DNA of 61,908 nt, the filler included, from Candidatus Delongbacteria bacterium (GTDB taxonomy: Bacteria; UBA4055): assembly GCA_016937995.1 (NCBI GenBank). It is 6 parts of 6 records of this genome, joined end to end, with 100 filler letters (N's around TTAATTAATTAA, not from the genome) between each part and the next. Parts side by side here need not be neighbours in the genome. Positions count along the whole stretch, not along the records: positions 4,913 to 16,199 come from JAFGVM010000058.1; 5 more parts are not named here. One strand, given 5' to 3'. Below the pieces are notes generated by a model. It saw only the letters and a list, made by a program, of their open reading frames with translations. It had not been told where the DNA came from and did not search any database. This document shows, piece by piece, positions 6,297 through 60,901 of this stretch (positions within the stretch are counted from its first letter, which is position 1; the number at the start of each line of letters is the position of its first letter). The translations under genes and the position numbers were made by a program.

Positions 6297-7217
6297 TTAT
6301 TTCGTATTCAAATATTCCATCACACTCAAAGCAGCGACAGTCCCGTCACTAACTGCAGTAGTGACCTGCCTGTACTTTTTAGTAACAACATCACCGGCAG
6401 CAAAAACACCTATCACATTGATCCTAAGATCAGCATCTACAATGATCTCTCCCCTGTCATTAATATCTAATATACCTTTAAAATGATCAGTTCTCGGAAT
6501 ATAACCAATAAAAATAAAAGCACCTGTTGCATTCAAAACCTGAGTCGAGCCGTTCTTATTACTCCTGATCCTGACAGAAGTTAAACTCTCATCCCCGAGA
6601 AATTCATCAACCTCATGCTCCAGAATAATATTTATCTTCGGATGATCGTTAGCTTCTCTGATCGCATGTTCATAACCCTGAAAATGATCGAACTGATGAA
6701 CTATAGTTACACTCTTAGCGTACTTGGTCAATGATACGGCTTCCTCCAGTGCAGAGTTTCCCCCACCGACGACAATAATATCCTGGTCCTGAAAAAAATC
6801 TCCATCGCATGTTGCACAATAAGAAATACCTTTACCTTTGAACTTCTTTTCAGAATCCAATCCCAAAGACCTCGGTTCTCCACCGGTCGCTATAATAACA
6901 GAATCCGCTGAAAATTCATCTTCTCCATCTATCTGAATAAATTTTTCTTTGCCGAGAATATCCATCTTTGTAATTTTACTGCTGGAATAAATTTTACAAC
7001 CGAAAGATTTTGCCTGTTTCTTCATATTGTTAGCTAATTCATATCCGGAAATTTCCAGAACGCCCGGATAATTGGCGATCTTATGAGTAAGAACCATTTG
7101 ACCACCTGCAGCTCCCTGATCAACTATCAAAACTGATTTTTTTGCTCTAGCAAGATAAATACCCGCAGTTAAACCTGCCGGTCCTGCCCCGATGATAATT
7201 GTATCGAATTTTTTCAT
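6297..7217 (-). CDS. trxB: Thioredoxin reductase
   Basis: GAGPAG FAD motif, CATCD active site, GGGNSA NADPH motif. Confidence 0.95.
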   Translation of the reverse strand: MKKFDTIIIGAGPAGLTAGIYLARAKKSVLIVDQGAAGGQMVLTHKIANYPGVLEISGYELANNMKKQAKSFGCKIYSSSKITKMDILGKEKFIQIDGEDEFSADSVIIATGGEPRSLGLDSEKKFKGKGISYCATCDGDFFQDQDIIVVGGGNSALEEAVSLTKYAKSVTIVHQFDHFQGYEHAIREANDHPKINIILEHEVDEFLGDESLTSVRIRSNKNGSTQVLNATGAFIFIGYIPRTDHFKGILDINDRGEIIVDADLRINVIGVFAAGDVVTKKYRQVTTAVSDGTVAALSVMEYLNTK

Positions 7218-7702: not shown

Positions 7703-8554
7703 TCATTTCAGGCTTCCAATAAAAACTCGATCATTTCCGCCATAATCCCTAATGATCTTAATATCTTTAAATTTGTCCTTAAAGATATTCTTAACAGGTT
7801 CAGCCTGCTCAAAACCGATCTCCAAAAACAGCATACCGTCAGGCTGTAATATTTTTTCAATTATTTCATTTATCCTTCTGTAAAATTTCAAACCGTCACC
7901 TTCATCAGTCAATGCTGTTCTCGGTTCATGGTCCTTTACTTTAGGATCAAGACCATTATAATCTTTTAATGAAATGTACGGAGGGTTAGAAATTACAATA
8001 TCGTGGAGTGACCTTGATGGAGCATTCCTGAACAGATCCCACTTAAAAAATTTTATCTTACCTGAGAGTTCATTTATATCTGCATTTTTTCTAGCCGTAT
8101 CCAGAATTTCATTAGAAATATCGGAGGCAAAAAATAAATTATTCGGACATTCTTTCGCTATAGCTATAGGGATACAACCGCTTCCGGTGCCTATATCCAG
8201 TATTCTAAGATTTTTATCCGATAAATATTTGATAACTTCCTCAACAAGTATCTCTGTGTCATTTCTAGGGATCAAAGTGTGTTCATTTACCATTATCCTG
8301 ACGTTATAGAAATCTTTTTCACCCTTGATATATTGGACCGGTTCATTAAAGGAACTTCTTTTTAGTAATGGTCTTATCTTAGCTAGTTCCTCTTCAGTAA
8401 CTAACCTGTCATACTGCAGATAAAGATCAAGCCTTTTCATACTTAACGCACTTGAAACTATGAGTTCAGCATTTAATCTCGGTTCTTCGATATTGTGTTC
8501 TTTTAGGTAATCTGTAGAGAGGTTTAATATATCTAAAAGTTTTTTATCTGCCAT
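7703..8554 (-). CDS. prmC: Release factor glutamine methyltransferase
   Basis: EPVQYI, LIPR, LDIGTGSG, SNPPY and LEIG motifs. Confidence 0.95.
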   Translation of the reverse strand: MADKKLLDILNLSTDYLKEHNIEEPRLNAELIVSSALSMKRLDLYLQYDRLVTEEELAKIRPLLKRSSFNEPVQYIKGEKDFYNVRIMVNEHTLIPRNDTEILVEEVIKYLSDKNLRILDIGTGSGCIPIAIAKECPNNLFFASDISNEILDTARKNADINELSGKIKFFKWDLFRNAPSRSLHDIVISNPPYISLKDYNGLDPKVKDHEPRTALTDEGDGLKFYRRINEIIEKILQPDGMLFLEIGFEQAEPVKNIFKDKFKDIKIIRDYGGNDRVFIGSLK

Positions 8555-9951
8555 TATATATCGTACTTCCTTATTATCTCATTCAAATTTTGTTTGATCT
8601 GGGAAAATTCATTCTCAAAAATAGTCCTTGAACTTAAATAATATTTTTCGTCTGAAATATATCCGAAAACAGGAGTTTTACTGATCATCCTCATTTCTTT
8701 TGAAAGTTTAGAAACTCCAAGGTCATTCTGCTCTATTGAAACTGCGAGACCTTCAAGTTTTTCAGTAGGTAAAGTCCCGGATCCTGCCTGATCTAGAACA
8801 TTTTCAACTTTTACTTTCCAGTGTTTTGGTACAATTGATTCAATCTGTTCCTTCAATTTTTCAGATTTTTTCTTAAGATCACTTCTTTTTGCTGAAAGTA
8901 ACTTCAGAGTTAAATGACCTGAATTTACAGGGTCCTTTTCAACGAAAATCTTGAGGGTTTCCTCTAAAAGTGCCAATCTTATCTTATCCGTTCTCAATAC
9001 ACGCATCAATGGATTCTTTTTTACTTTTTCTATCAGTTCCTTACTTCCTGCTATGATACCGCATTGCGGTCCGCCAAGAACCTTGTCTCCGCTAAAAGAA
9101 TAAATATCTGCACCATCATTGATAGCTTCCTGGACAGTTGGTTCGTGAGGCAATCCGTATTTATCCAGATCTGAAAAGATCCCGCCTCCCAGATCATAAT
9201 AGAATGGTATATTATGTTTTTTTCCTAGTTCTGCCAGCTCTTTAACAGTAACTTCATCCGTAAATCCTTCAATTCTATAATTTGAAGTATGAACTTTGAC
9301 CAAAGCACCGGTTTTTGTTGTAATTGCATCTTCATAATCAGAAATCTTTGTCTTATTTGTAGAACCGACCTCAAACATCTTTCCACCGGATTTCTTGATC
9401 ACATCAGGCATTCTGAACGACCCGCCGATCTCTACAAGTTCACCGCGGGATACAATGACTTCTTTTCTTTGAGCCAACGTATTAATACATATCATTACTG
9501 CTGCTGCGTTATTATTGACTACCGTTGCCGCTTCAGCACCTGTTATAATACTGATAAGTTCACTTATTTTATCTTCTCTACGACCTCTCTTCCCTGTTTC
9601 AACATTGACCTCAAGGGTTGAATAACCCTGAAGAATACCCTGAAGATTTTCCAGAGCAACTTCTGATAACGGTGCTCTTCCAAGACCTGTATTTAGAACA
9701 ATACCTGTCGCGTTTACAGCATGGCGGGTAAATGGAAGAAATCTTTCTGAAATAGAATCTGATATCTTAGATAAAATATCTTTATCAATACTCTTCCTTT
9801 TATTTTTTAAGATATCACGGCGAACAGTATCCAGTTCATCCTGAATAAGCTTCACCAATATTTCATGCTTATATTTATTCCTCAGTGATACAAACTCATT
9901 ACTTTCAAGAACTTTATCCACTTTAGGTATATTTTTTAATATATTCTGCAT
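8554..9951 (-). CDS. selA: L-seryl-tRNA(Sec) selenium transferase
   Basis: NATGIVLNTGLGRA, VNNNAAA, SRGELVEIGGSFR and FSGDKVLGGPQ (PLP Lys). ATG at 9951 follows an AGGA RBS. Confidence 0.95.
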   Translation of the reverse strand: MQNILKNIPKVDKVLESNEFVSLRNKYKHEILVKLIQDELDTVRRDILKNKRKSIDKDILSKISDSISERFLPFTRHAVNATGIVLNTGLGRAPLSEVALENLQGILQGYSTLEVNVETGKRGRREDKISELISIITGAEAATVVNNNAAAVMICINTLAQRKEVIVSRGELVEIGGSFRMPDVIKKSGGKMFEVGSTNKTKISDYEDAITTKTGALVKVHTSNYRIEGFTDEVTVKELAELGKKHNIPFYYDLGGGIFSDLDKYGLPHEPTVQEAINDGADIYSFSGDKVLGGPQCGIIAGSKELIEKVKKNPLMRVLRTDKIRLALLEETLKIFVEKDPVNSGHLTLKLLSAKRSDLKKKSEKLKEQIESIVPKHWKVKVENVLDQAGSGTLPTEKLEGLAVSIEQNDLGVSKLSKEMRMISKTPVFGYISDEKYYLSSRTIFENEFSQIKQNLNEIIRKYDI

Positions 9952-9967
9952 TGTTCCTACCAAATTT

Positions 9968-10927
9968 TTAATCGAATTTTATAATATTTCTTACTCTGAT
10001 CGAATTTATTATATCTCTGTGTTTTTTTGTGTCGATAGAAAGATTTTTTAGTATTTCAACAATCATAGGATCATCTGAGTCGAACAGCTTGAACAGATCT
10101 TTCTCAATTATCGAATTTTCTAAAATAAAAGCGAATGAATATGCCATTTCAAGAGTGTATTCATCAGTAAATACTTTTGCCATTTCATTCTTAACATTAT
10201 TAATTGAAACTTTTACTTCTTCAAGGGAGCTGTCTCGATGGTCAAATCTGATCAACCCCTCGTTAATTTTTATAATGATCTGTTTGATCCATGCTTCGTG
10301 CTTTTTTTCCTCTTCCACAAGAAAAATCCATACACTCTCTTTAGTGAATTTTTTACTGTAGTAAGAATACAATTGACTTATCATCCTTTCATGTTCGGCA
10401 TGATATCCCAACAGAACAAGTCCTTTATCTATCTCCTCTTTCAGCTCTTTATTCGTCTTACAATTATTTAATAATTCATCAAGTTTTTTCTCTAAAACAT
10501 CCTTATGCGATTCGGTGTCCTTTTTAAGATCATCCAATACTTTCTGAATACCTTTAAGATCACTCCAAAAACTATCGAACATTTTTCTTTCAATTATTGA
10601 ATTTTCCAAATTCTTTGCAAAATCAACTACTTCAGACAACTTAATACCGTATTTTTCCACTTTTAATCTGAAATCAACGATCGATTCTATGGATTTTGAA
10701 ATATATTCAACAGAATAATGCCTTTTATCAAACTTCACTGAACCTTCAACAACATTGTCTAATATTGATCTTAGCCAATCTGCATGTTTAAATTCCTCTT
10801 TAGACAAAAAATCCCAGATATCCATATCAGGGAAATACGCATTTAATACAGAATATAGATTACCTATAGCTTCTTCATGAAATGCCATTAGTTCTATGAT
10901 CTCAAAAATTTCTTCTTTTTCATTCAT
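9968..10927 (-). CDS. Ferritin-like (rubrerythrin-type) protein, two tandem domains
   Basis: Duplicated W.FL..EE.KH and LENSIIE...DT..H motifs. Confidence 0.8.
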   Translation of the reverse strand: MNEKEEIFEIIELMAFHEEAIGNLYSVLNAYFPDMDIWDFLSKEEFKHADWLRSILDNVVEGSVKFDKRHYSVEYISKSIESIVDFRLKVEKYGIKLSEVVDFAKNLENSIIERKMFDSFWSDLKGIQKVLDDLKKDTESHKDVLEKKLDELLNNCKTNKELKEEIDKGLVLLGYHAEHERMISQLYSYYSKKFTKESVWIFLVEEEKKHEAWIKQIIIKINEGLIRFDHRDSSLEEVKVSINNVKNEMAKVFTDEYTLEMAYSFAFILENSIIEKDLFKLFDSDDPMIVEILKNLSIDTKKHRDIINSIRVRNIIKFD

Positions 10928-11435
10928 TGTTGATCCTTTTCACTATATTTTCGAAAGAATTATACTCTTTCTCCTTTAAATATTCGTCCAGTGCTTTCTC
11001 TAAAATATTCTGATGGGATTTAGTATCCGTCCTGAGTTGAACAAGAACTTTCTCCAATTCCGGATCATCGCTGCTGAAATAATTTAAAAAATTCTTCTCT
11101 AACATTGAACTTTCCAGCTTTAAAGCAAACTTTATAGCTTTACCAAGTGTTCTGCCTCCATTTTCAACAATTTTCAGTTCATTTAAAACCTGTTCGATAG
11201 CCATAGTGATCGTTTTAACCGAAAAATGCATGTCACTGAAATCTACAGAACCATCCTCAACATTATCTTTGATCGATATTACCAGATGAAAATGATCTTC
11301 TTCCTCTTTTCGCAGAAAAGTCCACAATTTAAAATCAGGGAATTTTTCACTGTAAGAGGTATAAAGATCAGCTAATGCCTGCTCATTCCTTGCTAACAAT
11401 TCAACGATCTCAACAATTTCTTCCCTTGTCTTCAT
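10920..11435 (-). CDS. Ferritin-like (rubrerythrin-type) protein, single domain
   Basis: WTFLRKEEEDH and LESSMLE...DTKSH; paralogous to both halves of 9968-10927. Confidence 0.8.
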   Translation of the reverse strand: MKTREEIVEIVELLARNEQALADLYTSYSEKFPDFKLWTFLRKEEEDHFHLVISIKDNVEDGSVDFSDMHFSVKTITMAIEQVLNELKIVENGGRTLGKAIKFALKLESSMLEKNFLNYFSSDDPELEKVLVQLRTDTKSHQNILEKALDEYLKEKEYNSFENIVKRINNE

Positions 11436-11652: not shown

Positions 11653-13200
11653 ATGAAAAAGATATTACTTACAGTGCTTTTCCTTACATCAATGGTATTT
11701 GCCGGTGAAGGGGATGAACTGATCAACATTGGCGATATATCTTATCAGGATATGAACTGGAATGATAATGGAGACATTTTTTATTCAAGAAGAAATATAC
11801 AGGATATGACTTCTAAAGGACAACCTGTTGTTATTCATTTTTTCACCGCCTGCTACAGTTGATCAGGTATTCAAACGATGCCGGAGGCGTCTTCCTTTGA
11901 AAGAGCTTACAATAACATAAATCTAAAATCGGATATATATATTGTAGGTGCTTCTACAAATTTAAATTTGATCCCTGATCTTAAATATACCCAGGAAATA
12001 AATTTTATCCGTTATAATATGGCAACTGAAATTGAATTAGGACATTATTACAAATATTTTGATTTTGAAACTGACTATTATTCTAATTTCCTATTCATAG
12101 GCAAGAACAATAAAGTTATCGGAAAACTTGATTATTCAGCTACTCAGGAAGAATTAGAGAATATGTTCAATCTTACTTTAGCATCATTTGAAGGAATCCA
12201 TAAAAGAAAACTTATTGAAAATACTATTCTTACCGGTGAGACTGTATCCTTTGATCTTAGTGATTACATTTACATTGAGGATGGAAAGAGTGCTCAATTT
12301 TCAATTAGCGGTAATTCAAATCCATTAGCCGTAACAGGAAATATTGGAAATGGTAAATTGAATTTGATAAAAGGAGAATACACCGGAAGTTCGAAAATGA
12401 CCGTTCAGGTAAAAGTTCCCGAGAAAGAGATATATTTCAATATGGATTTCTACGTTTTCAGTGCATTGGGAGAGAGTGAGGATTTCGAATACGATTTACT
12501 TACTGAAAGTAATCTTCCATGGGATAATGACAGAGAGGAATGGATCATAGCAGAAGATTTTTCTTTTACTGGAAATTATTCGATCAGATCCGGAGATATA
12601 GTGGACAAACTATCCACAACTCTATCTTTGACAATAAATCTGGAGAACCCTGATTTTATAAGTTTCGCATACAGAACATCTTCTGAAGTTGGGGGTGACA
12701 CCTTAAGTTTTCACGTTGATAATACTTTAATGAACTTTTCAGACCCCGTTTCCTTATGGTCAGGTTATAATGACTGGAGAGTAGTGACCTATAATTTACG
12801 TCCTGGAGAGCATATTTTAAAATGGACATATTCAAAGAATGATTTTGGAAGTGTTGGAGACGATTGTGTTTGGCTTGATGCTGTTGTTCTCCCTGTTAAT
12901 TCTGTTGTGGGTAGTGGGATAGAGAACGATAAATTACCTTCCTCACTTGATATTTCAAATTATCCGAACCCTTTCAATCCTGATACCACTATTGATTTCT
13001 CACTTAACAGAGCTTCTAATGTAATATTAAGTATATATGACATGAACGGTCAGATAGTTGAAAAAATTCACGAAGGATTTACTCAGGCAGGAAATTACTC
13101 TCATAATTTCAACGGGGACAATATCTCCAGTGGAATATATTATGCTGTTATTAAAACTGAGAATCAACAGAAAGTTTCAAAAATGATCCTTGTAAAATAA
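11653..13200 (+). CDS. Probable secreted selenoprotein (515 aa, Sec70): thioredoxin-like CxxU domain, beta-sandwich domains and an NYPNPFNP C-terminal sorting domain
   Basis: ORFs 11653-11862 and 11878-13200 are in one frame, separated only by TGA (11860-62) in PVVIHFFTACYS-U. SECIS-like hairpin follows; signal peptide present; selA on the same contig. Confidence 0.8.
11870..11901 (+). promoter_or_regulatory. Bacterial SECIS-like hairpin
   Basis: TTCAAA-C-GATGCC-GGA-GGCGTC-TTCC-TTTGAA; the G-initial apical loop starts 20 nt after the UGA. Confidence 0.65.
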
Positions 13201-13223: not shown

Positions 13224-13249
13224 AAAAGGGTGATCAGGTCACCCTTTTT
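13224..13249. terminator. Bidirectional terminator between convergent genes
   Basis: AAAAGGGTGA/TCACCCTTTT stem. Confidence 0.75.
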
Positions 13250-13467
13250 ACATTTAGTAATTTTTCCATCTCACCTTTATCCGGAAAACGCCCCTCTGTA
13301 TATTTATCGAATACTGATTTACCGTCCAGAGTTATCTGAAAAATACCCCTACCTTTTTCTATCAGTTCAATTTCAGCATTTTTACAAGTTTCCAGAATTT
13401 CTTTTTCCACACGGGAAGCGAACGGGAAATAATCTCAATCACCGCAGTATATAATTTTGATATTCAC
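13234..13467 (-). CDS. SelT/SelW/SelH (Rdx) family selenoprotein, 77 aa, Sec11 (not in the ORF track)
   Basis: Manual translation: MNIKIIYCGD-U-DYFPFASRVEKEILETCKNAEIELIEKGRGIFQITLDGKSVFDKYTEGRFPDKGEMEKLLNVKRVT. TGA at 13435-37; Rdx hallmarks YCxxU, G.F.I..DG and RFP. GTG start overlaps the upstream TAG and has a GGAG RBS. Confidence 0.92.
13397..13430 (-). promoter_or_regulatory. Bacterial SECIS-like hairpin of the Rdx gene
   Basis: AUUUC..UUCC-CGUGU-GGAA..GAAAU; the loop (G at position 2) starts 21 nt after the UGA. Confidence 0.55.
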
Positions 13468-14780
13468 TATAATTTCTCCACGTATTTATTAAAATTCTTT
13501 GCAATATCCCTATAGATTTTTTCCAGCTCTATGACACTTTTTATTTCAACCCATTCATGTGCTCTGTGTGAATTCCAACCTACAGGTCCTAATACAAGTA
13601 CCGGTATCTTTGGAAAATGTCTTTTGAAAACATTTTCATCTGCTACAGAATAACCCATGTTGAAATTCATAAAGTGTATCGTTTTATTCACATTATCTTT
13701 TACAAATTGAGTAAAAGGATGATTTTCTCCCGTAAGATAACCTTCACTGAAAGGAGTAGGTCTTTCTTTAAGCTTTACAGAGCATTTCTTTAAAACTCCA
13801 TCAATCACTACTTCTCTTAATACATTATTATCATACAGAGAATTTATCATATCATCGAACATTCTTTTAAGCTTTTCGATGCTCATATTAGGTGTAAAAG
13901 TACAGTCAATGGAAATATTACCTTTAGAAGGGATAGAGAGAGAACCGTCCCCGCAGACAATTTTATTAACGAAGAATGATCCTTCGATATAATTTACAGC
14001 TTTTTTGTCAGGAACTTCACTATTGAAAAAATCAAATTTGTCATTAAATGTTTTTCTAAGATCTTCAAGAGCAGCAACGATCTTTGAACCTTCTACAGCT
14101 GCATTAATAAAACTCTCATCAAAAGAAATGGCTCCATGTCCACCTGTACCATGTACTTCAATTTCAAATTCACACCTCCCTAGTCGTCCGATACCAATTG
14201 ATCCACCACCATAGATATAATTCGGACCATCCCCAATTTCCGGAACAATTATACCTTTTACATCATCCATGAAACTCGATCTTACCAATTGATTTGCACC
14301 AAGTGAAAAAAATTCCTCATCCACTCCGAAACACAGCTTTATTTTATAATTTTCAGGTTCTACGTCCTTAAAAGCTTCCAACAAAACAGCGATTCCAGCT
14401 TTCATATCATTTGATCCAAGTCCGACTAACACATCTCTATCTTTTCCCTGAAACTCCAATTCTGATCTCTTTGGAGTTAGTGCATCACTTTTACTTAACC
14501 ATGGGTTCGAACTTACAGTATCCATATGAGCATAAAATAGGATAGAATTTTCTCCGGATCCTTTCTCCGCTAAAATATTAAAGAACTTATTACTGTCCTT
14601 ATCGGTGTGAACATATTGTTTATAGAATTTAAAACCATTCCCGTATAACTTATTAATTATGTATTCAGAAATTTCATTTTCATTTCCTCCCTGAATATAT
14701 TCTTTTTTTATCTTTTCTATTGTAAAGGGATTTCTTGAGTCTATCTTGATCAATTCTTCTAAAGTTTTTATAACTTCCAT
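13467..14780 (-). CDS. M20 family metallopeptidase/deacylase (ArgE/DapE-like)
   Basis: HMDTV, GSNDMKAG, DEE and C-terminal H..HE metal-binding motifs. Confidence 0.9.
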   Translation of the reverse strand: MEVIKTLEELIKIDSRNPFTIEKIKKEYIQGGNENEISEYIINKLYGNGFKFYKQYVHTDKDSNKFFNILAEKGSGENSILFYAHMDTVSSNPWLSKSDALTPKRSELEFQGKDRDVLVGLGSNDMKAGIAVLLEAFKDVEPENYKIKLCFGVDEEFFSLGANQLVRSSFMDDVKGIIVPEIGDGPNYIYGGGSIGIGRLGRCEFEIEVHGTGGHGAISFDESFINAAVEGSKIVAALEDLRKTFNDKFDFFNSEVPDKKAVNYIEGSFFVNKIVCGDGSLSIPSKGNISIDCTFTPNMSIEKLKRMFDDMINSLYDNNVLREVVIDGVLKKCSVKLKERPTPFSEGYLTGENHPFTQFVKDNVNKTIHFMNFNMGYSVADENVFKRHFPKIPVLVLGPVGWNSHRAHEWVEIKSVIELEKIYRDIAKNFNKYVEKL

Positions 14781-14880
14781 TTTTACCTCTGAATTTGTAA
14801 TGAATAAAATATACAAAATATCATTGATAAAACATAAAACAAAACTTTATATTTGAATGTTAAATAAAAAGGAGTGAATT

Positions 14881-58966: not shown

Positions 58967-60901
58967 TCACTTTATCGCACCCCGGTGCTTTAATATATAC
59001 TTCGATCTGTCTTTAGGGCTGACACCTCTGTAAGGAATGGTCTTTCCTAGCTCGAGCGGGACTTCCTGATAACCGTGGAAGTGAGTAATATACTTTCCTT
59101 TGCCGCCTGTGATTGAATTAAGTGTATTGAGATAATCCAAGGATGTTGCGACTGGGATCTTTCCATCTATGACAATTTTCCCATCAACATTCTCAGGCGT
59201 ACCAATCTCAGCTCTGATAGCTATAAGACTGCTGATGATCTTGCCGGAAGATTCTTCAGGAGCTGATATTTTAAACGACAGCACTGGTTCGAGCAATTTG
59301 CAGCCTGTATTAATTAGTCCGTTCATCATCGCAAGTTTCGTAGCAAGAATAAAATCTCCGGGACGGGAATGAATTACATGATCTTCTTCACCGATCAGAG
59401 TTATTTTCAGATCAGTGACCTGCCAGCCGTAGATACCCTGTTGAAGTGCTTCATCTATTGTAGCCTCTATCTCATTCTGATACTTTGCGGCTATTTTATC
59501 AACTCCTACTTTTGATTCATAGACAACTCCGCTTCCCCGTTCTAAAGGCTCAATTTCAAATCTGACAACAGCCCAGCACGGTTTAGGCATTGTATACTCA
59601 TCGTAGCCTTCGCCTTTTTGCGTCGGAGTTTCTTTATAAATGACGATCGGATCTCCGAAGCTAACACTCAAATTAAATCTCTGCCTGAATACTGTCTCAA
59701 GTATCTCAAGCTGGATCTTTCCCATGATCTTAATATGAAGTTGTCTCTCATCCTTAAGCCAAACATAGTTGAGTGCCGGATCTTCCTCCGAAAGCTCTTT
59801 CACTGCAGTAACAAGTGCTGAAAGATCAGAGTCTTTTTCCGGTTCAAGTTTTACGGTAAGCAAAGGATCGCTGAGACCTGTATGTTTACATAGTTCAATT
59901 CTCTTCAAGAGTTCCGGATCAGAACCGATCATATCACCCGCAATGACATTTTCAAGACCGCAGATCATAGCAGTATCACCTGACTGTAGGATATCTAAAG
60001 TCTCAAGCTTGCCTGAATAGGATTTTTTTATCTGAGTAACTTTATTTTCTTTTCCCTGTGAACCATAAGTAACAAGATCTCTGTTCCTGATCGAGCCACT
60101 GAAAAGCCTTACACTTGCCATTTTACCAAATTGAGCGTCATATTCAAGCTTGTAAACTATACCAGAAAGTTCATTGCTTTTCGCGGATGCTTCCGGCATT
60201 ATAGTCGTGATATCATCGAGTAATTCTTTAATACCTTCGTTAAGCTTTGCTGAGCCTGACAGAACAGGAAATAAAATCCTGCTGTGAATACTTTTTTTTA
60301 AGGCTGTATTTAGCTCAGAGAAAGAAATATTCTCTTCATTTAAGTATTTCTCTATCAGAATATCATCAGCTGAAGAAATTTGTTCAGTAATTTCATCGGA
60401 GATATCGTCAGTCTCTGAAAAATCCTGCAAAACAATAATATTCTGAGATAATTCTTTCTTTATTTCTTCTGTGACTGCATCAATATCAGCACCGGCACGA
60501 TCGGTTTTATTTATAAAAATTAAAACAGGTATATTAAGCTTTACCAATGCAGACCAGAGATTTTCAGTATGTGCCTGAACACCTTCTACTGCTGAAATAA
60601 CTAATACAGCGCAATCTAAGGCTAATAATGATCGATCAACTTCTGATGAAAAATCGATGTGCCCCGGAGTATCAATTATATTTATCGTTGTATTATTCCA
60701 TTCCAGAGAAACTGAAGCTGAACGGACTGAGATACCACGCTCTTTCTCAACTTCCATTGAATCTGTTACGGAAGTACCTTTATCAACTGAACCTGCCGTT
60801 TTTATCCTGCCTGAAAGTTCAAGCATCCTTTCTGTAATAGTGGTTTTCCCTGCATCAACATGCGCAAGGATACCTATGTTAATGAATTTGTTTTTTTTCA
60901 T
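58967..60901 (-). CDS. TetM/TetW/TetO-like ribosomal protection family GTPase
   Basis: NIGILAHVDAGKTT, ERGIS, DTPGH and NKTD motifs; 644 aa with EF-G-like domains. Confidence 0.85.
   Translation of the reverse strand: MKKNKFINIGILAHVDAGKTTITERMLELSGRIKTAGSVDKGTSVTDSMEVEKERGISVRSASVSLEWNNTTINIIDTPGHIDFSSEVDRSLLALDCAVLVISAVEGVQAHTENLWSALVKLNIPVLIFINKTDRAGADIDAVTEEIKKELSQNIIVLQDFSETDDISDEITEQISSADDILIEKYLNEENISFSELNTALKKSIHSRILFPVLSGSAKLNEGIKELLDDITTIMPEASAKSNELSGIVYKLEYDAQFGKMASVRLFSGSIRNRDLVTYGSQGKENKVTQIKKSYSGKLETLDILQSGDTAMICGLENVIAGDMIGSDPELLKRIELCKHTGLSDPLLTVKLEPEKDSDLSALVTAVKELSEEDPALNYVWLKDERQLHIKIMGKIQLEILETVFRQRFNLSVSFGDPIVIYKETPTQKGEGYDEYTMPKPCWAVVRFEIEPLERGSGVVYESKVGVDKIAAKYQNEIEATIDEALQQGIYGWQVTDLKITLIGEEDHVIHSRPGDFILATKLAMMNGLINTGCKLLEPVLSFKISAPEESSGKIISSLIAIRAEIGTPENVDGKIVIDGKIPVATSLDYLNTLNSITGGKGKYITHFHGYQEVPLELGKTIPYRGVSPKDRSKYILKHRGAIK

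Follow-up and report, generated by a model that had tools for sequence, protein, structure and literature searches.

A predicted selenocysteine-containing, TlpA-like protein with a type IX secretion sorting domain from a Candidatus Delongbacteria-like bacterium

The prokaryotic selenoprotein families tabulated in a 2026 review include TlpA-like and redoxin-like proteins with UxxC or UGC motifs (cd02966, PF08534), in which U denotes selenocysteine (PMC13188914). [quoted passage not shown] The gene described here is located at positions 11653–13200 (+ strand) of a 61,908-nucleotide stretch of Candidatus Delongbacteria DNA (GCA_016937995.1), hereafter the window, in the part derived from JAFGVM010000058.1. 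It most probably represents one 515-residue selenoprotein gene of a Candidatus Delongbacteria-like bacterium, encoding a T9SS-exported protein with a TlpA-like head.

The frame opened by the ATG at 11653 spans 69 codons (MKKILLTVLFLTSMVFAGEG...GQPVVIHFFTACYS), with the N-terminus MKKILLTVLFLTSMVFA followed by GEG...VVIHFFTACYS, and reaches a TGA at 11860–11862 which is the sole interruption of the frame 11653–13200 (+). Five sense codons (TCA GGT ATT CAA ACG, 11863–11877; S-G-I-Q-T) follow the TGA and lead into a 440-residue open reading frame (ORF), extending from the ATG at 11878 to the TAA at 13198–13200. Read-through with the TGA taken as U gives a 515-residue product that carries the motif C67-Y-S-U70. 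The elements listed in a first-pass annotation of this DNA (VIHFFTAC-Y-S-TGA, the five-codon bridge and the 440-residue ORF) were all recovered on re-reading of the frame. Its proposal of a single exported 515-residue CxxU protein is likewise supported by the retention of the UGA and frame in 24/24 loci, a covarying hairpin, a predicted fold that spans the TGA and a sorting domain scoring above threshold. The features concerned are:

11653–13200, + strand: predicted complete selenoprotein coding sequence, 515 codons including the selenocysteine UGA, and the TAA stop at 13198–13200 (single frame with TGA read as U)
11653–11703, + strand: predicted Sec-type signal peptide MKKILLTVLFLTSMVFA, likely cut before GEG (by inspection: KK, hydrophobic core, VFA)
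11710–12192, + strand: predicted ResA/TlpA/DsbE-like thioredoxin-fold head, residues 20–180, with C67-Y-S-U70 and the invariant Glu78 (head model; ResA, Z 14.0)
11860–11862, + strand: in-frame TGA for the predicted selenocysteine at residue 70 (single TGA at the same column in 24/24 loci)
11877–11891, + strand: hairpin resembling a selenocysteine insertion sequence (SECIS), stem GAUGCC / GGCGUC, loop GGA at 11883–11885 (covariation and RNAalifold)
12196–12462, + strand: predicted immunoglobulin-like (Ig-like) beta-sandwich, residues about 182–270 (model strands 182–270; confidence blocks of 94–97)
12475–12912, + strand: predicted jelly-roll domain (MAM/CBM-like), residues about 275–420 (model strands 298–419)
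12961–13191, + strand: T9SS type A C-terminal sorting domain, residues 437–513 (PF18962, TIGR04183; residues 432–513 in the model)
8554–9963, − strand: selA, encoding L-seryl-tRNA(Sec) selenium transferase, divergent and 1.7 kb upstream (TIGR00474; 549.7 bits, cut-off 267.9)

At the DNA level, twenty-four family members could be distinguished, comprising the window gene, one metagenome contig (L003) and 22 loci from 12/15 Candidatus Delongbacteria genomes. Exactly one in-frame TGA occurs at the same active-site alignment column in each of the twenty-four, with head identities ranging from 23 to 84 %, and none of these loci carries a TAA, TAG or sense codon at this column. The genome loci derive from a six-frame search of the fifteen genomes of the phylum, where each of the 22 matches has a single internal stop that is always TGA, and by these matches most genomes of the phylum carry the family in about two copies. 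The read-through alignment incorporates twenty-one of the genome loci, L003 and the window, with the 22nd genome locus (L025) handled apart. Two rows were removed as duplicates, since the loci L012 and L018 overlap and their tandem neighbours were counted in both; L011 is ended by the end of its contig, and the row for L007 has no signal peptide, its start being set too far in. The window protein is matched from query residue 1, 2 or 5 to residue 515 by 19/21 genome loci, and full-length BLASTP matches (query 1–515) to the read-through frames of related loci were obtained. A scan of genome contigs gave two loci labelled Candidatus Delongbacteria (L001 and L002) from 55 pattern matches, both with TGA at the codon, which were left out of the counts, being identical in location to L004 and L005. 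The metagenome scan gave a single locus (L003; TGA at the codon) from 380 pattern matches when the post-UGA head alignment was used, and none of 127 pattern matches was confirmed with the 69-residue alignment. Of the 22 genes that are complete, 14 terminate with TAA, eight with TAG and none with TGA.

In the public annotations seen, the gene is split into a 69-residue "hypothetical protein" and a 440-residue "T9SS sorting domain protein", so that an active enzyme, along with the roughly two copies carried by most genomes of the phylum, would be invisible in databases. A search with the read-through product returned the 440-residue ORF of the window first, followed by seventeen proteins of 418–441 residues with 81–86 % coverage, and in each of the sixteen database homologs that were aligned the first residue lies at a conserved Pro-Glu-Ala or shortly before it. 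With the 69-residue piece as query, nine relatives (65–78 % identity) were found, each with ...AC[YFL]S at its end, of which seven have a length of exactly 69 residues and two an upstream start extension. The separate listing of both ORFs, and the ATG that the window and the two relatives nearest to it have five codons past the TGA, would suit two genes or a pseudogene, with the TGA as a true stop terminating a 69-residue secreted peptide and the 440-residue ORF either translated from the ATG at 11878 or dead. This is scarcely credible, given that the frame and TGA are kept in 24/24 loci down to 23 % identity without the stop ever becoming TAA or TAG, and that both halves are conserved at the protein level. 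Furthermore, an ATG after the TGA occurs in only 3/15 sequences of groups 1 and 3 (with TTG in one), and a start codon is thus not conserved for the downstream part. On its own, the 440-residue part would also constitute a T9SS sorting domain protein without a signal peptide, and the predicted thioredoxin fold requires residues from both sides of the TGA.

Contigs of two other sequencing runs, one of them from a different study, cover positions 11733–12156 and 11737–12050 with 0 differences, and a sequencing error in the window is therefore excluded. A non-Cys residue at the selenocysteine position and reads with a sense codon, which had been named beforehand as findings that would speak for a simple mutation or error, were looked for and neither was seen; the contigs of the second study keep the TGA. 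Short contig pieces matching 12957–12998 were set aside as belonging to other T9SS cargo, whose NYPNPFNP motif they represent, and not to the selenoprotein gene. No homolog with Cys at the selenocysteine position occurs among thirteen head-region matches, all of which cover only the part after U. Likewise, the best 150 matches of an exhaustive protein search include no Cys form and no family-length match that starts before query residue 75, although this list consists mostly of jelly-roll repeat proteins and the absence of a Cys form is therefore unproven.

A bacterial SECIS element is a stem-loop immediately 3′ of the UGA, with a G in its apical loop. Among the fifteen group-1 and group-3 sequences, a conserved 6-bp helix starts 14 nt past the UGA (17 nt in L003), with 90.5 % of the cells paired over the seven tested pairs, compared to 70.6 % in shuffles. 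Six of these pairs are considered conserved, as the seventh (29-45) forms in only 6/15 sequences. Six pair types and nine double changes are found for pair 30-44, and pairs 31-43 and 32-42 show five and four double changes, respectively. The covariation score (0.516 versus 0.128 in shuffles) was reached by 0/500 shuffles, a count and not a probability, and controls in which the helix was slid along the alignment gave at most 64.8 % paired cells and scores of ≤ 0.118. RNAalifold independently yielded the same six pairs. Of the "strong two-tier" hairpin previously noted in the window, the upper 6-bp tier is conserved and covaries, but the lower tier (UUCAAA/UUUGAA) occurs in the window only and was rejected as a conserved feature, and the folding energy is unremarkable. 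The hairpin is, as judged from these alignments, present beyond chance, with the support derived from comparison between sequences rather than from one sequence alone. In the group-2 paralogs, a hairpin whose loop contains GU lies about as far from the UGA (87.5 % paired); its support is weaker, with little variation and 16/500 shuffles reaching the score. The sole Rfam match at E ≤ 10 around the site is a chance microRNA on the other strand.

The selA gene is divergent from the selenoprotein gene, in accordance with its earlier annotation. Among the fifteen related genomes, selB scores above the cut-off in twelve and selD in fifteen, and tRNA-Sec was detected in fourteen; within the window itself, ARAGORN found neither a tRNA nor a tRNA-Sec gene. 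An in-frame TGA also occurs in selD of 14/15 related genomes (the match in the fifteenth is partial), providing an internal control for selenocysteine decoding in the lineage. The conservation data demonstrate evolutionary read-through, not which residue is inserted, and the TGA might accordingly be decoded as some other residue, through genome-wide reassignment to Trp or Gly, or by a near-cognate tRNA inserting Trp or Cys. Such decoding is very improbable. TGA terminates 6/34 long frames in the window and is thus not reassigned genome-wide; it also ends the neighbouring Rdx gene, which has an internal TGA of its own, in a CGDU motif. Each family gene has a single TGA, always at the redox-motif position, with a covarying hairpin at the distance of a SECIS, and selA, selB, selD and tRNA-Sec are present, the first in the window and the others in related genomes.

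Models were generated with AlphaFold2 from a 46-row alignment, with predicted local distance difference test (pLDDT) values of 87.5 for the full protein and 88.1 for the head alone. In a structural search with the head model, ResA (2f9s_A) was the top match (Z 14.0; root-mean-square deviation 2.6; 134/138 residues aligned), and DsbE/CcmG, TlpA, StoA, SdbA, DsbF and Etrx2 gave Z values of 9.6–12.7. Ninety-one chains matched at Z ≥ 8, the best 50 of which are nearly all of the thioredoxin fold, with TlpA/DsbE/ResA-type proteins on top. The head profile furthermore matches the TlpA-like nuclear magnetic resonance structures 2m72 (E 3.9e-4) and 2l5o (E 7.7e-4), with C67 and U70 aligned to their CxxC motif. 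The UGA is situated between strand 59–64 and helix 77–87 of the model, and the thioredoxin fold thus needs both "ORFs". The window protein has a 5-residue insertion between the motif and the invariant Glu78, a residue whose role is presumably that of its counterpart in ResA and CcmG. Group-2 heads are matched below threshold by Redoxin (17.1 bits versus 26.6) and DsbE (14.5 bits versus 123). Since the curated models do not recognise the window head, its TlpA-like membership is based only on the fold and on a weak similarity of profiles. The NCBIfam selenoprotein models (NF04xxxx, for example VPGUxxT, Trx7/PDZ and SaoT) gave no match to six family members, for which the T9SS sorting domain alone exceeds a curated cut-off at E ≤ 1, the rest being sub-threshold matches to non-selenoprotein models.

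The predicted signal region forms a low-confidence helix in the model (residues 2–15; pLDDT < 50 for residues 10–21), and a similar hydrophobic N-terminus is found in most of the 21 relatives for which a start could be set. Structure prediction of the read-through product, as suggested by the first-pass annotation, gave a thioredoxin fold that spans the TGA, followed by Ig-like and jelly-roll beta-sandwiches and the sorting domain. The terminal NYPNPFNP...KMILVK domain, previously noted without a family name beyond "sorting domain", could be assigned to the T9SS on the basis of matches above the cut-offs to PF18962 (E 1.4e-11; 45 bits versus 27) and TIGR04183 (45 bits versus 23), and the PorU sortase scores above its cut-off in 10/15 related genomes. 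Foldseek comparison of the whole model returned CBM51, MAM-Ig-FN and DipZ C-terminal entries, which may belong to the jelly-roll domain; no Pfam model matches over this domain of the window protein.

The jelly-roll domain (window residues ~275–420) is also repeated in giant proteins of 2,000–7,800 residues, for example P0132 (4,599 residues), which contains thirty matched stretches. A 508-residue protein, P0244, carries a cyclophilin-type peptidyl-prolyl isomerase head (PF00160; 151.6 bits) on the same scaffold, with 33 % identity over window residues 178–515, and the Ig-like/jelly-roll/sorting scaffold thus seems to be a modular carrier of different enzyme heads. The family member L025 (G003:C55, − strand), of ~270 residues, has a signal peptide and a TlpA-like head with the motif FTGUGAC and one TGA, joined directly to a sorting domain without the beta-sandwich domains.

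Although U is fixed, the position of its partner Cys differs among the twenty-four sequences, with four forms distinguished:

AC[YFM][SG]U (CxxU), Cys at −3: 11 sequences, including the window
FCU (CU), Cys at −1: 2 sequences (L018 and L003)
SUGSMC (UxxxC), Cys at +4: 2 sequences (L016 and L017)
GU[SRG][TGA]C (UxxC), Cys at +3: 9 sequences (eight group-2 paralogs and L025)

Database proteins with the N-terminus "MC.KPEA" are accounted for by the UxxxC form. In a maximum-likelihood tree of 22 full-length rows, from which L003 and L025 were excluded, three clades are formed by the UxxxC sequences (100/100), the UxxC sequences (100/100) and the CxxU and CU sequences together (92/87). The CU sequence L018 is nested within the CxxU clade (99/97), but L018, L016 and L017 were flagged as long branches and their placement is uncertain. 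L018 and L012 are tandem family genes in one genome (G015:C18, 25757–27816), with the motifs AQFCU (CU) and ACFSU (CxxU), respectively. Judged by its distances from the strand before it and from the Glu, selenocysteine occupies the first (nucleophilic) position of the CxxC motif in group 2, where the spacing is exactly U-x-x-C-x-x-E, and the second in the group of the window.

The mobility of the partner Cys around the fixed U, with a CU form nested inside the CxxU clade, represents a plasticity that is unexpected for a classical CxxC redox pair, and it raises the possibility that the selenocysteine of this T9SS-exported protein is a 1-Sec peroxidase-like scavenger or a high-affinity cell-surface site for soft metals or metalloids (Hg, Cu, As or Se species) with the Cys as second ligand. 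Peroxiredoxins, glutathione peroxidase and Sco copper chaperones do match structurally (Z 10–11.5), and metal binding has been argued for the CU dipeptides of other selenoproteins (10.1101/2022.07.06.499078). There is also no obvious extracellular reductant to recycle a disulfide, a point that also counts against a surface oxidoreductase, as this would have no obvious electron donor outside the cell. However, the top structural matches are ResA, DsbE and CcmG (Z 12–14), an invariant Glu past the motif is a ResA/CcmG-type feature and the group-2 paralogs have the textbook U-x-x-C-x-x-E spacing, and a peroxidase or metal site, the main rival reading, is considered unlikely. The head would most likely function instead as a selenol/thiol-disulfide oxidoreductase, either a reductase or an isomerase, acting on extracellular or surface substrates, a reading favoured at about even confidence.

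The steps by which such an oxidoreductase would be produced and act rest on the standard understanding of bacterial selenocysteine decoding and of T9SS cargo. SelB with Sec-tRNA(Sec) would bind the GGA-loop hairpin, with selenocysteine inserted at UGA-70 instead of termination. The N-terminal signal peptide would then direct the chain across the inner membrane via the Sec translocon, and the type A sorting domain would hand the folded protein to the T9SS for release or anchoring on the cell surface. There a selenenylsulfide could arise between the selenocysteine and the Cys close to it, and extracellular or surface substrates may be bound or positioned by the Ig-like and jelly-roll domains.

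Several observations, besides the want of an evident electron donor, weigh against a surface-exported selenoprotein with a TlpA-like head. Selenium incorporation, surface location, redox activity and substrate are all inferred only. The usual selenocysteine/Cys pairing test is inapplicable, as no Cys homolog was found. No RNA run was listed as containing the sequence, and one metatranscriptome contained no match to the gene, which is uninformative on its expression. For the hairpin, the helix scored for covariation was derived from the same sequences. The three inner pairs and loop also coincide with the codons of the conserved Pro-Glu-Ala (CCG GAG GCx), and their invariance could be a protein constraint, with covariation confined to the three outer pairs. 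Single-sequence folding of a 101-nt segment is unremarkable (z = −1.16; 27/200 shuffles as stable), and no Rfam family was matched at its gathering score across the whole window. As for the head, no Pfam or NCBIfam thioredoxin-type family (Redoxin PF08534, AhpC-TSA PF00578 or DsbE TIGR00385) matches that of the window at E ≤ 1, and in the model U70 lies in an extended 12-residue loop and not at a helix N-terminus.

Most bacterial selenoproteins are small redox proteins of the cytoplasm or periplasm, to which the window gene would add a multidomain architecture targeted to a secretion system, putting selenium chemistry at or past the outer membrane. The four motif geometries around an invariant U provide a natural experiment on the need of selenocysteine for a partner Cys, including the CxxU of the window, where selenocysteine takes the second, normally resolving, position. 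The gene would further represent a clean case of a SECIS hairpin that shares its sequence with conserved Pro-Glu-Ala codons, and the hairpin and motif together could seed a model for finding such genes in T9SS-bearing phyla. A broader and more speculative proposal, on balance doubtful, is that this is the first T9SS-exported selenoprotein family and is obligately selenocysteine-containing (UGA in 24/24 loci and no Cys form found), with selenium as the fixed catalytic centre around which the helper Cys has moved at least three times. Together with the cyclophilin-headed P0244, it might then form part of a kit of surface-displayed protein-folding or -unfolding catalysts of anaerobic Delongbacteria, serving extracellular substrates or their own secreted cargo without a cytoplasmic electron supply.

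Just downstream of the selenoprotein gene and convergent with it, as the first-pass annotation had placed it, is a SelW/SelT/Rdx-type selenoprotein gene of 77 codons (MNIKIIYCGDU...; 13234–13467, − strand; TIGR02174, 48.7 bits versus 34.2), with its selenocysteine TGA (CGDU) at 13435–13437 and its own TGA terminator at 13234–13236. The GTG start of this gene overlaps the TAG stop of an upstream ArgE/DapE-type M20 deacylase gene (TAGTG), and the two are therefore probably co-transcribed. The M20 deacylase (13467–14816, − strand) is convergent with and downstream of the group-1 gene in the window, L001, L002 and seven more distant loci (56–59 % identity), the loci with this gene being L001, L002, L008–L013 and L015. 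It weakly resembles the models for YgeY, a "selenium metabolism-linked hydrolase" (E 4e-13, short of the cut-off), and its position next to the group-1 gene may be plain synteny. The interval from selA to the selenoprotein gene holds two neighbouring genes (9968–10927 and 10920–11435, both − strand), for which there is no Pfam or NCBIfam match and which are mutual paralogs. The L001 counterpart of each also matches the other gene, more weakly (30–39 % identity), and both genes keep their place beside selA in L001, with part of them visible in L002. The window furthermore encodes a thioredoxin-reductase-like protein near selA (6297–7217, − strand; TIGR01292, 337.6 bits, just below the cut-off of 343.45) and an EF-G/Tet(M)-like ribosomal-protection-type GTPase (58967–60901, − strand; NF012153, 568 bits, below 775).

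The head resembles the ResA/CcmG(DsbE)/TlpA/StoA/SdbA/Etrx enzymes (cd02966), many of which match it at Z 11–13, in its N-terminal beta-hairpin and thioredoxin core with a central insert, apparently in the position of its redox motif between strand 1 and helix 1 and in the acidic residue after the motif, and in its predicted export. It differs in the predicted selenocysteine that replaces one motif Cys and, in the window protein, the insertion before the Glu-bearing helix, and, unlike these membrane-anchored or lipoprotein periplasmic enzymes, it is fused to Ig-like, jelly-roll and T9SS sorting domains. A further likeness is to DipZ of Mycobacterium tuberculosis, which unites a TlpA-like thioredoxin and a carbohydrate-binding-type jelly-roll in one chain and would on that basis share the same domain logic. 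Its C-terminal domain (5cyy_A) matches the head model at Z 12.3 (model residues 1–165 on chain residues 376–549), and 2hyx_A matches the whole model (E 6.2e-7 over 404 alignment columns), but the domain arrangement differs, as the global superposition is poor (template modelling score 0.24–0.35; root-mean-square deviation 17). DipZ is also Cys-based and tethered to a membrane electron-transfer domain, without a T9SS domain. HBP35, as described in its abstracts, provides a Cys-based precedent for T9SS cargo with a thioredoxin motif; it is called hemin-binding, and the abstracts make no mention of selenocysteine, Ig-like or jelly-roll domains.

Among selenoproteins, the group-2 paralogs (GUSTC) share the UxxC motif with the TlpA- and redoxin-type proteins as these are described in PMC13188914. 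The subfamily of the window has the CxxU motif, with CU and UxxxC variants, and the table of that review has no cd02966 entry with CxxU; the words T9SS and sorting are absent from its main text. Full-text searches found no literature on selenoproteins and type IX secretion, for which the one paper returned concerns rabbit diets, or on Delongbacteria and selenocysteine, and supplementary family lists, which lay outside the search, may bear on priority. The earlier remark that large surface-exported selenoproteins are poorly described must be narrowed, in that TlpA-like selenoproteins are already represented in the literature (PMC13188914), but it holds for the architecture and the export route. 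The protein is of a known kind as a TlpA-like selenoprotein, and it is new in its multidomain, T9SS-exported architecture and its unusual motif history.

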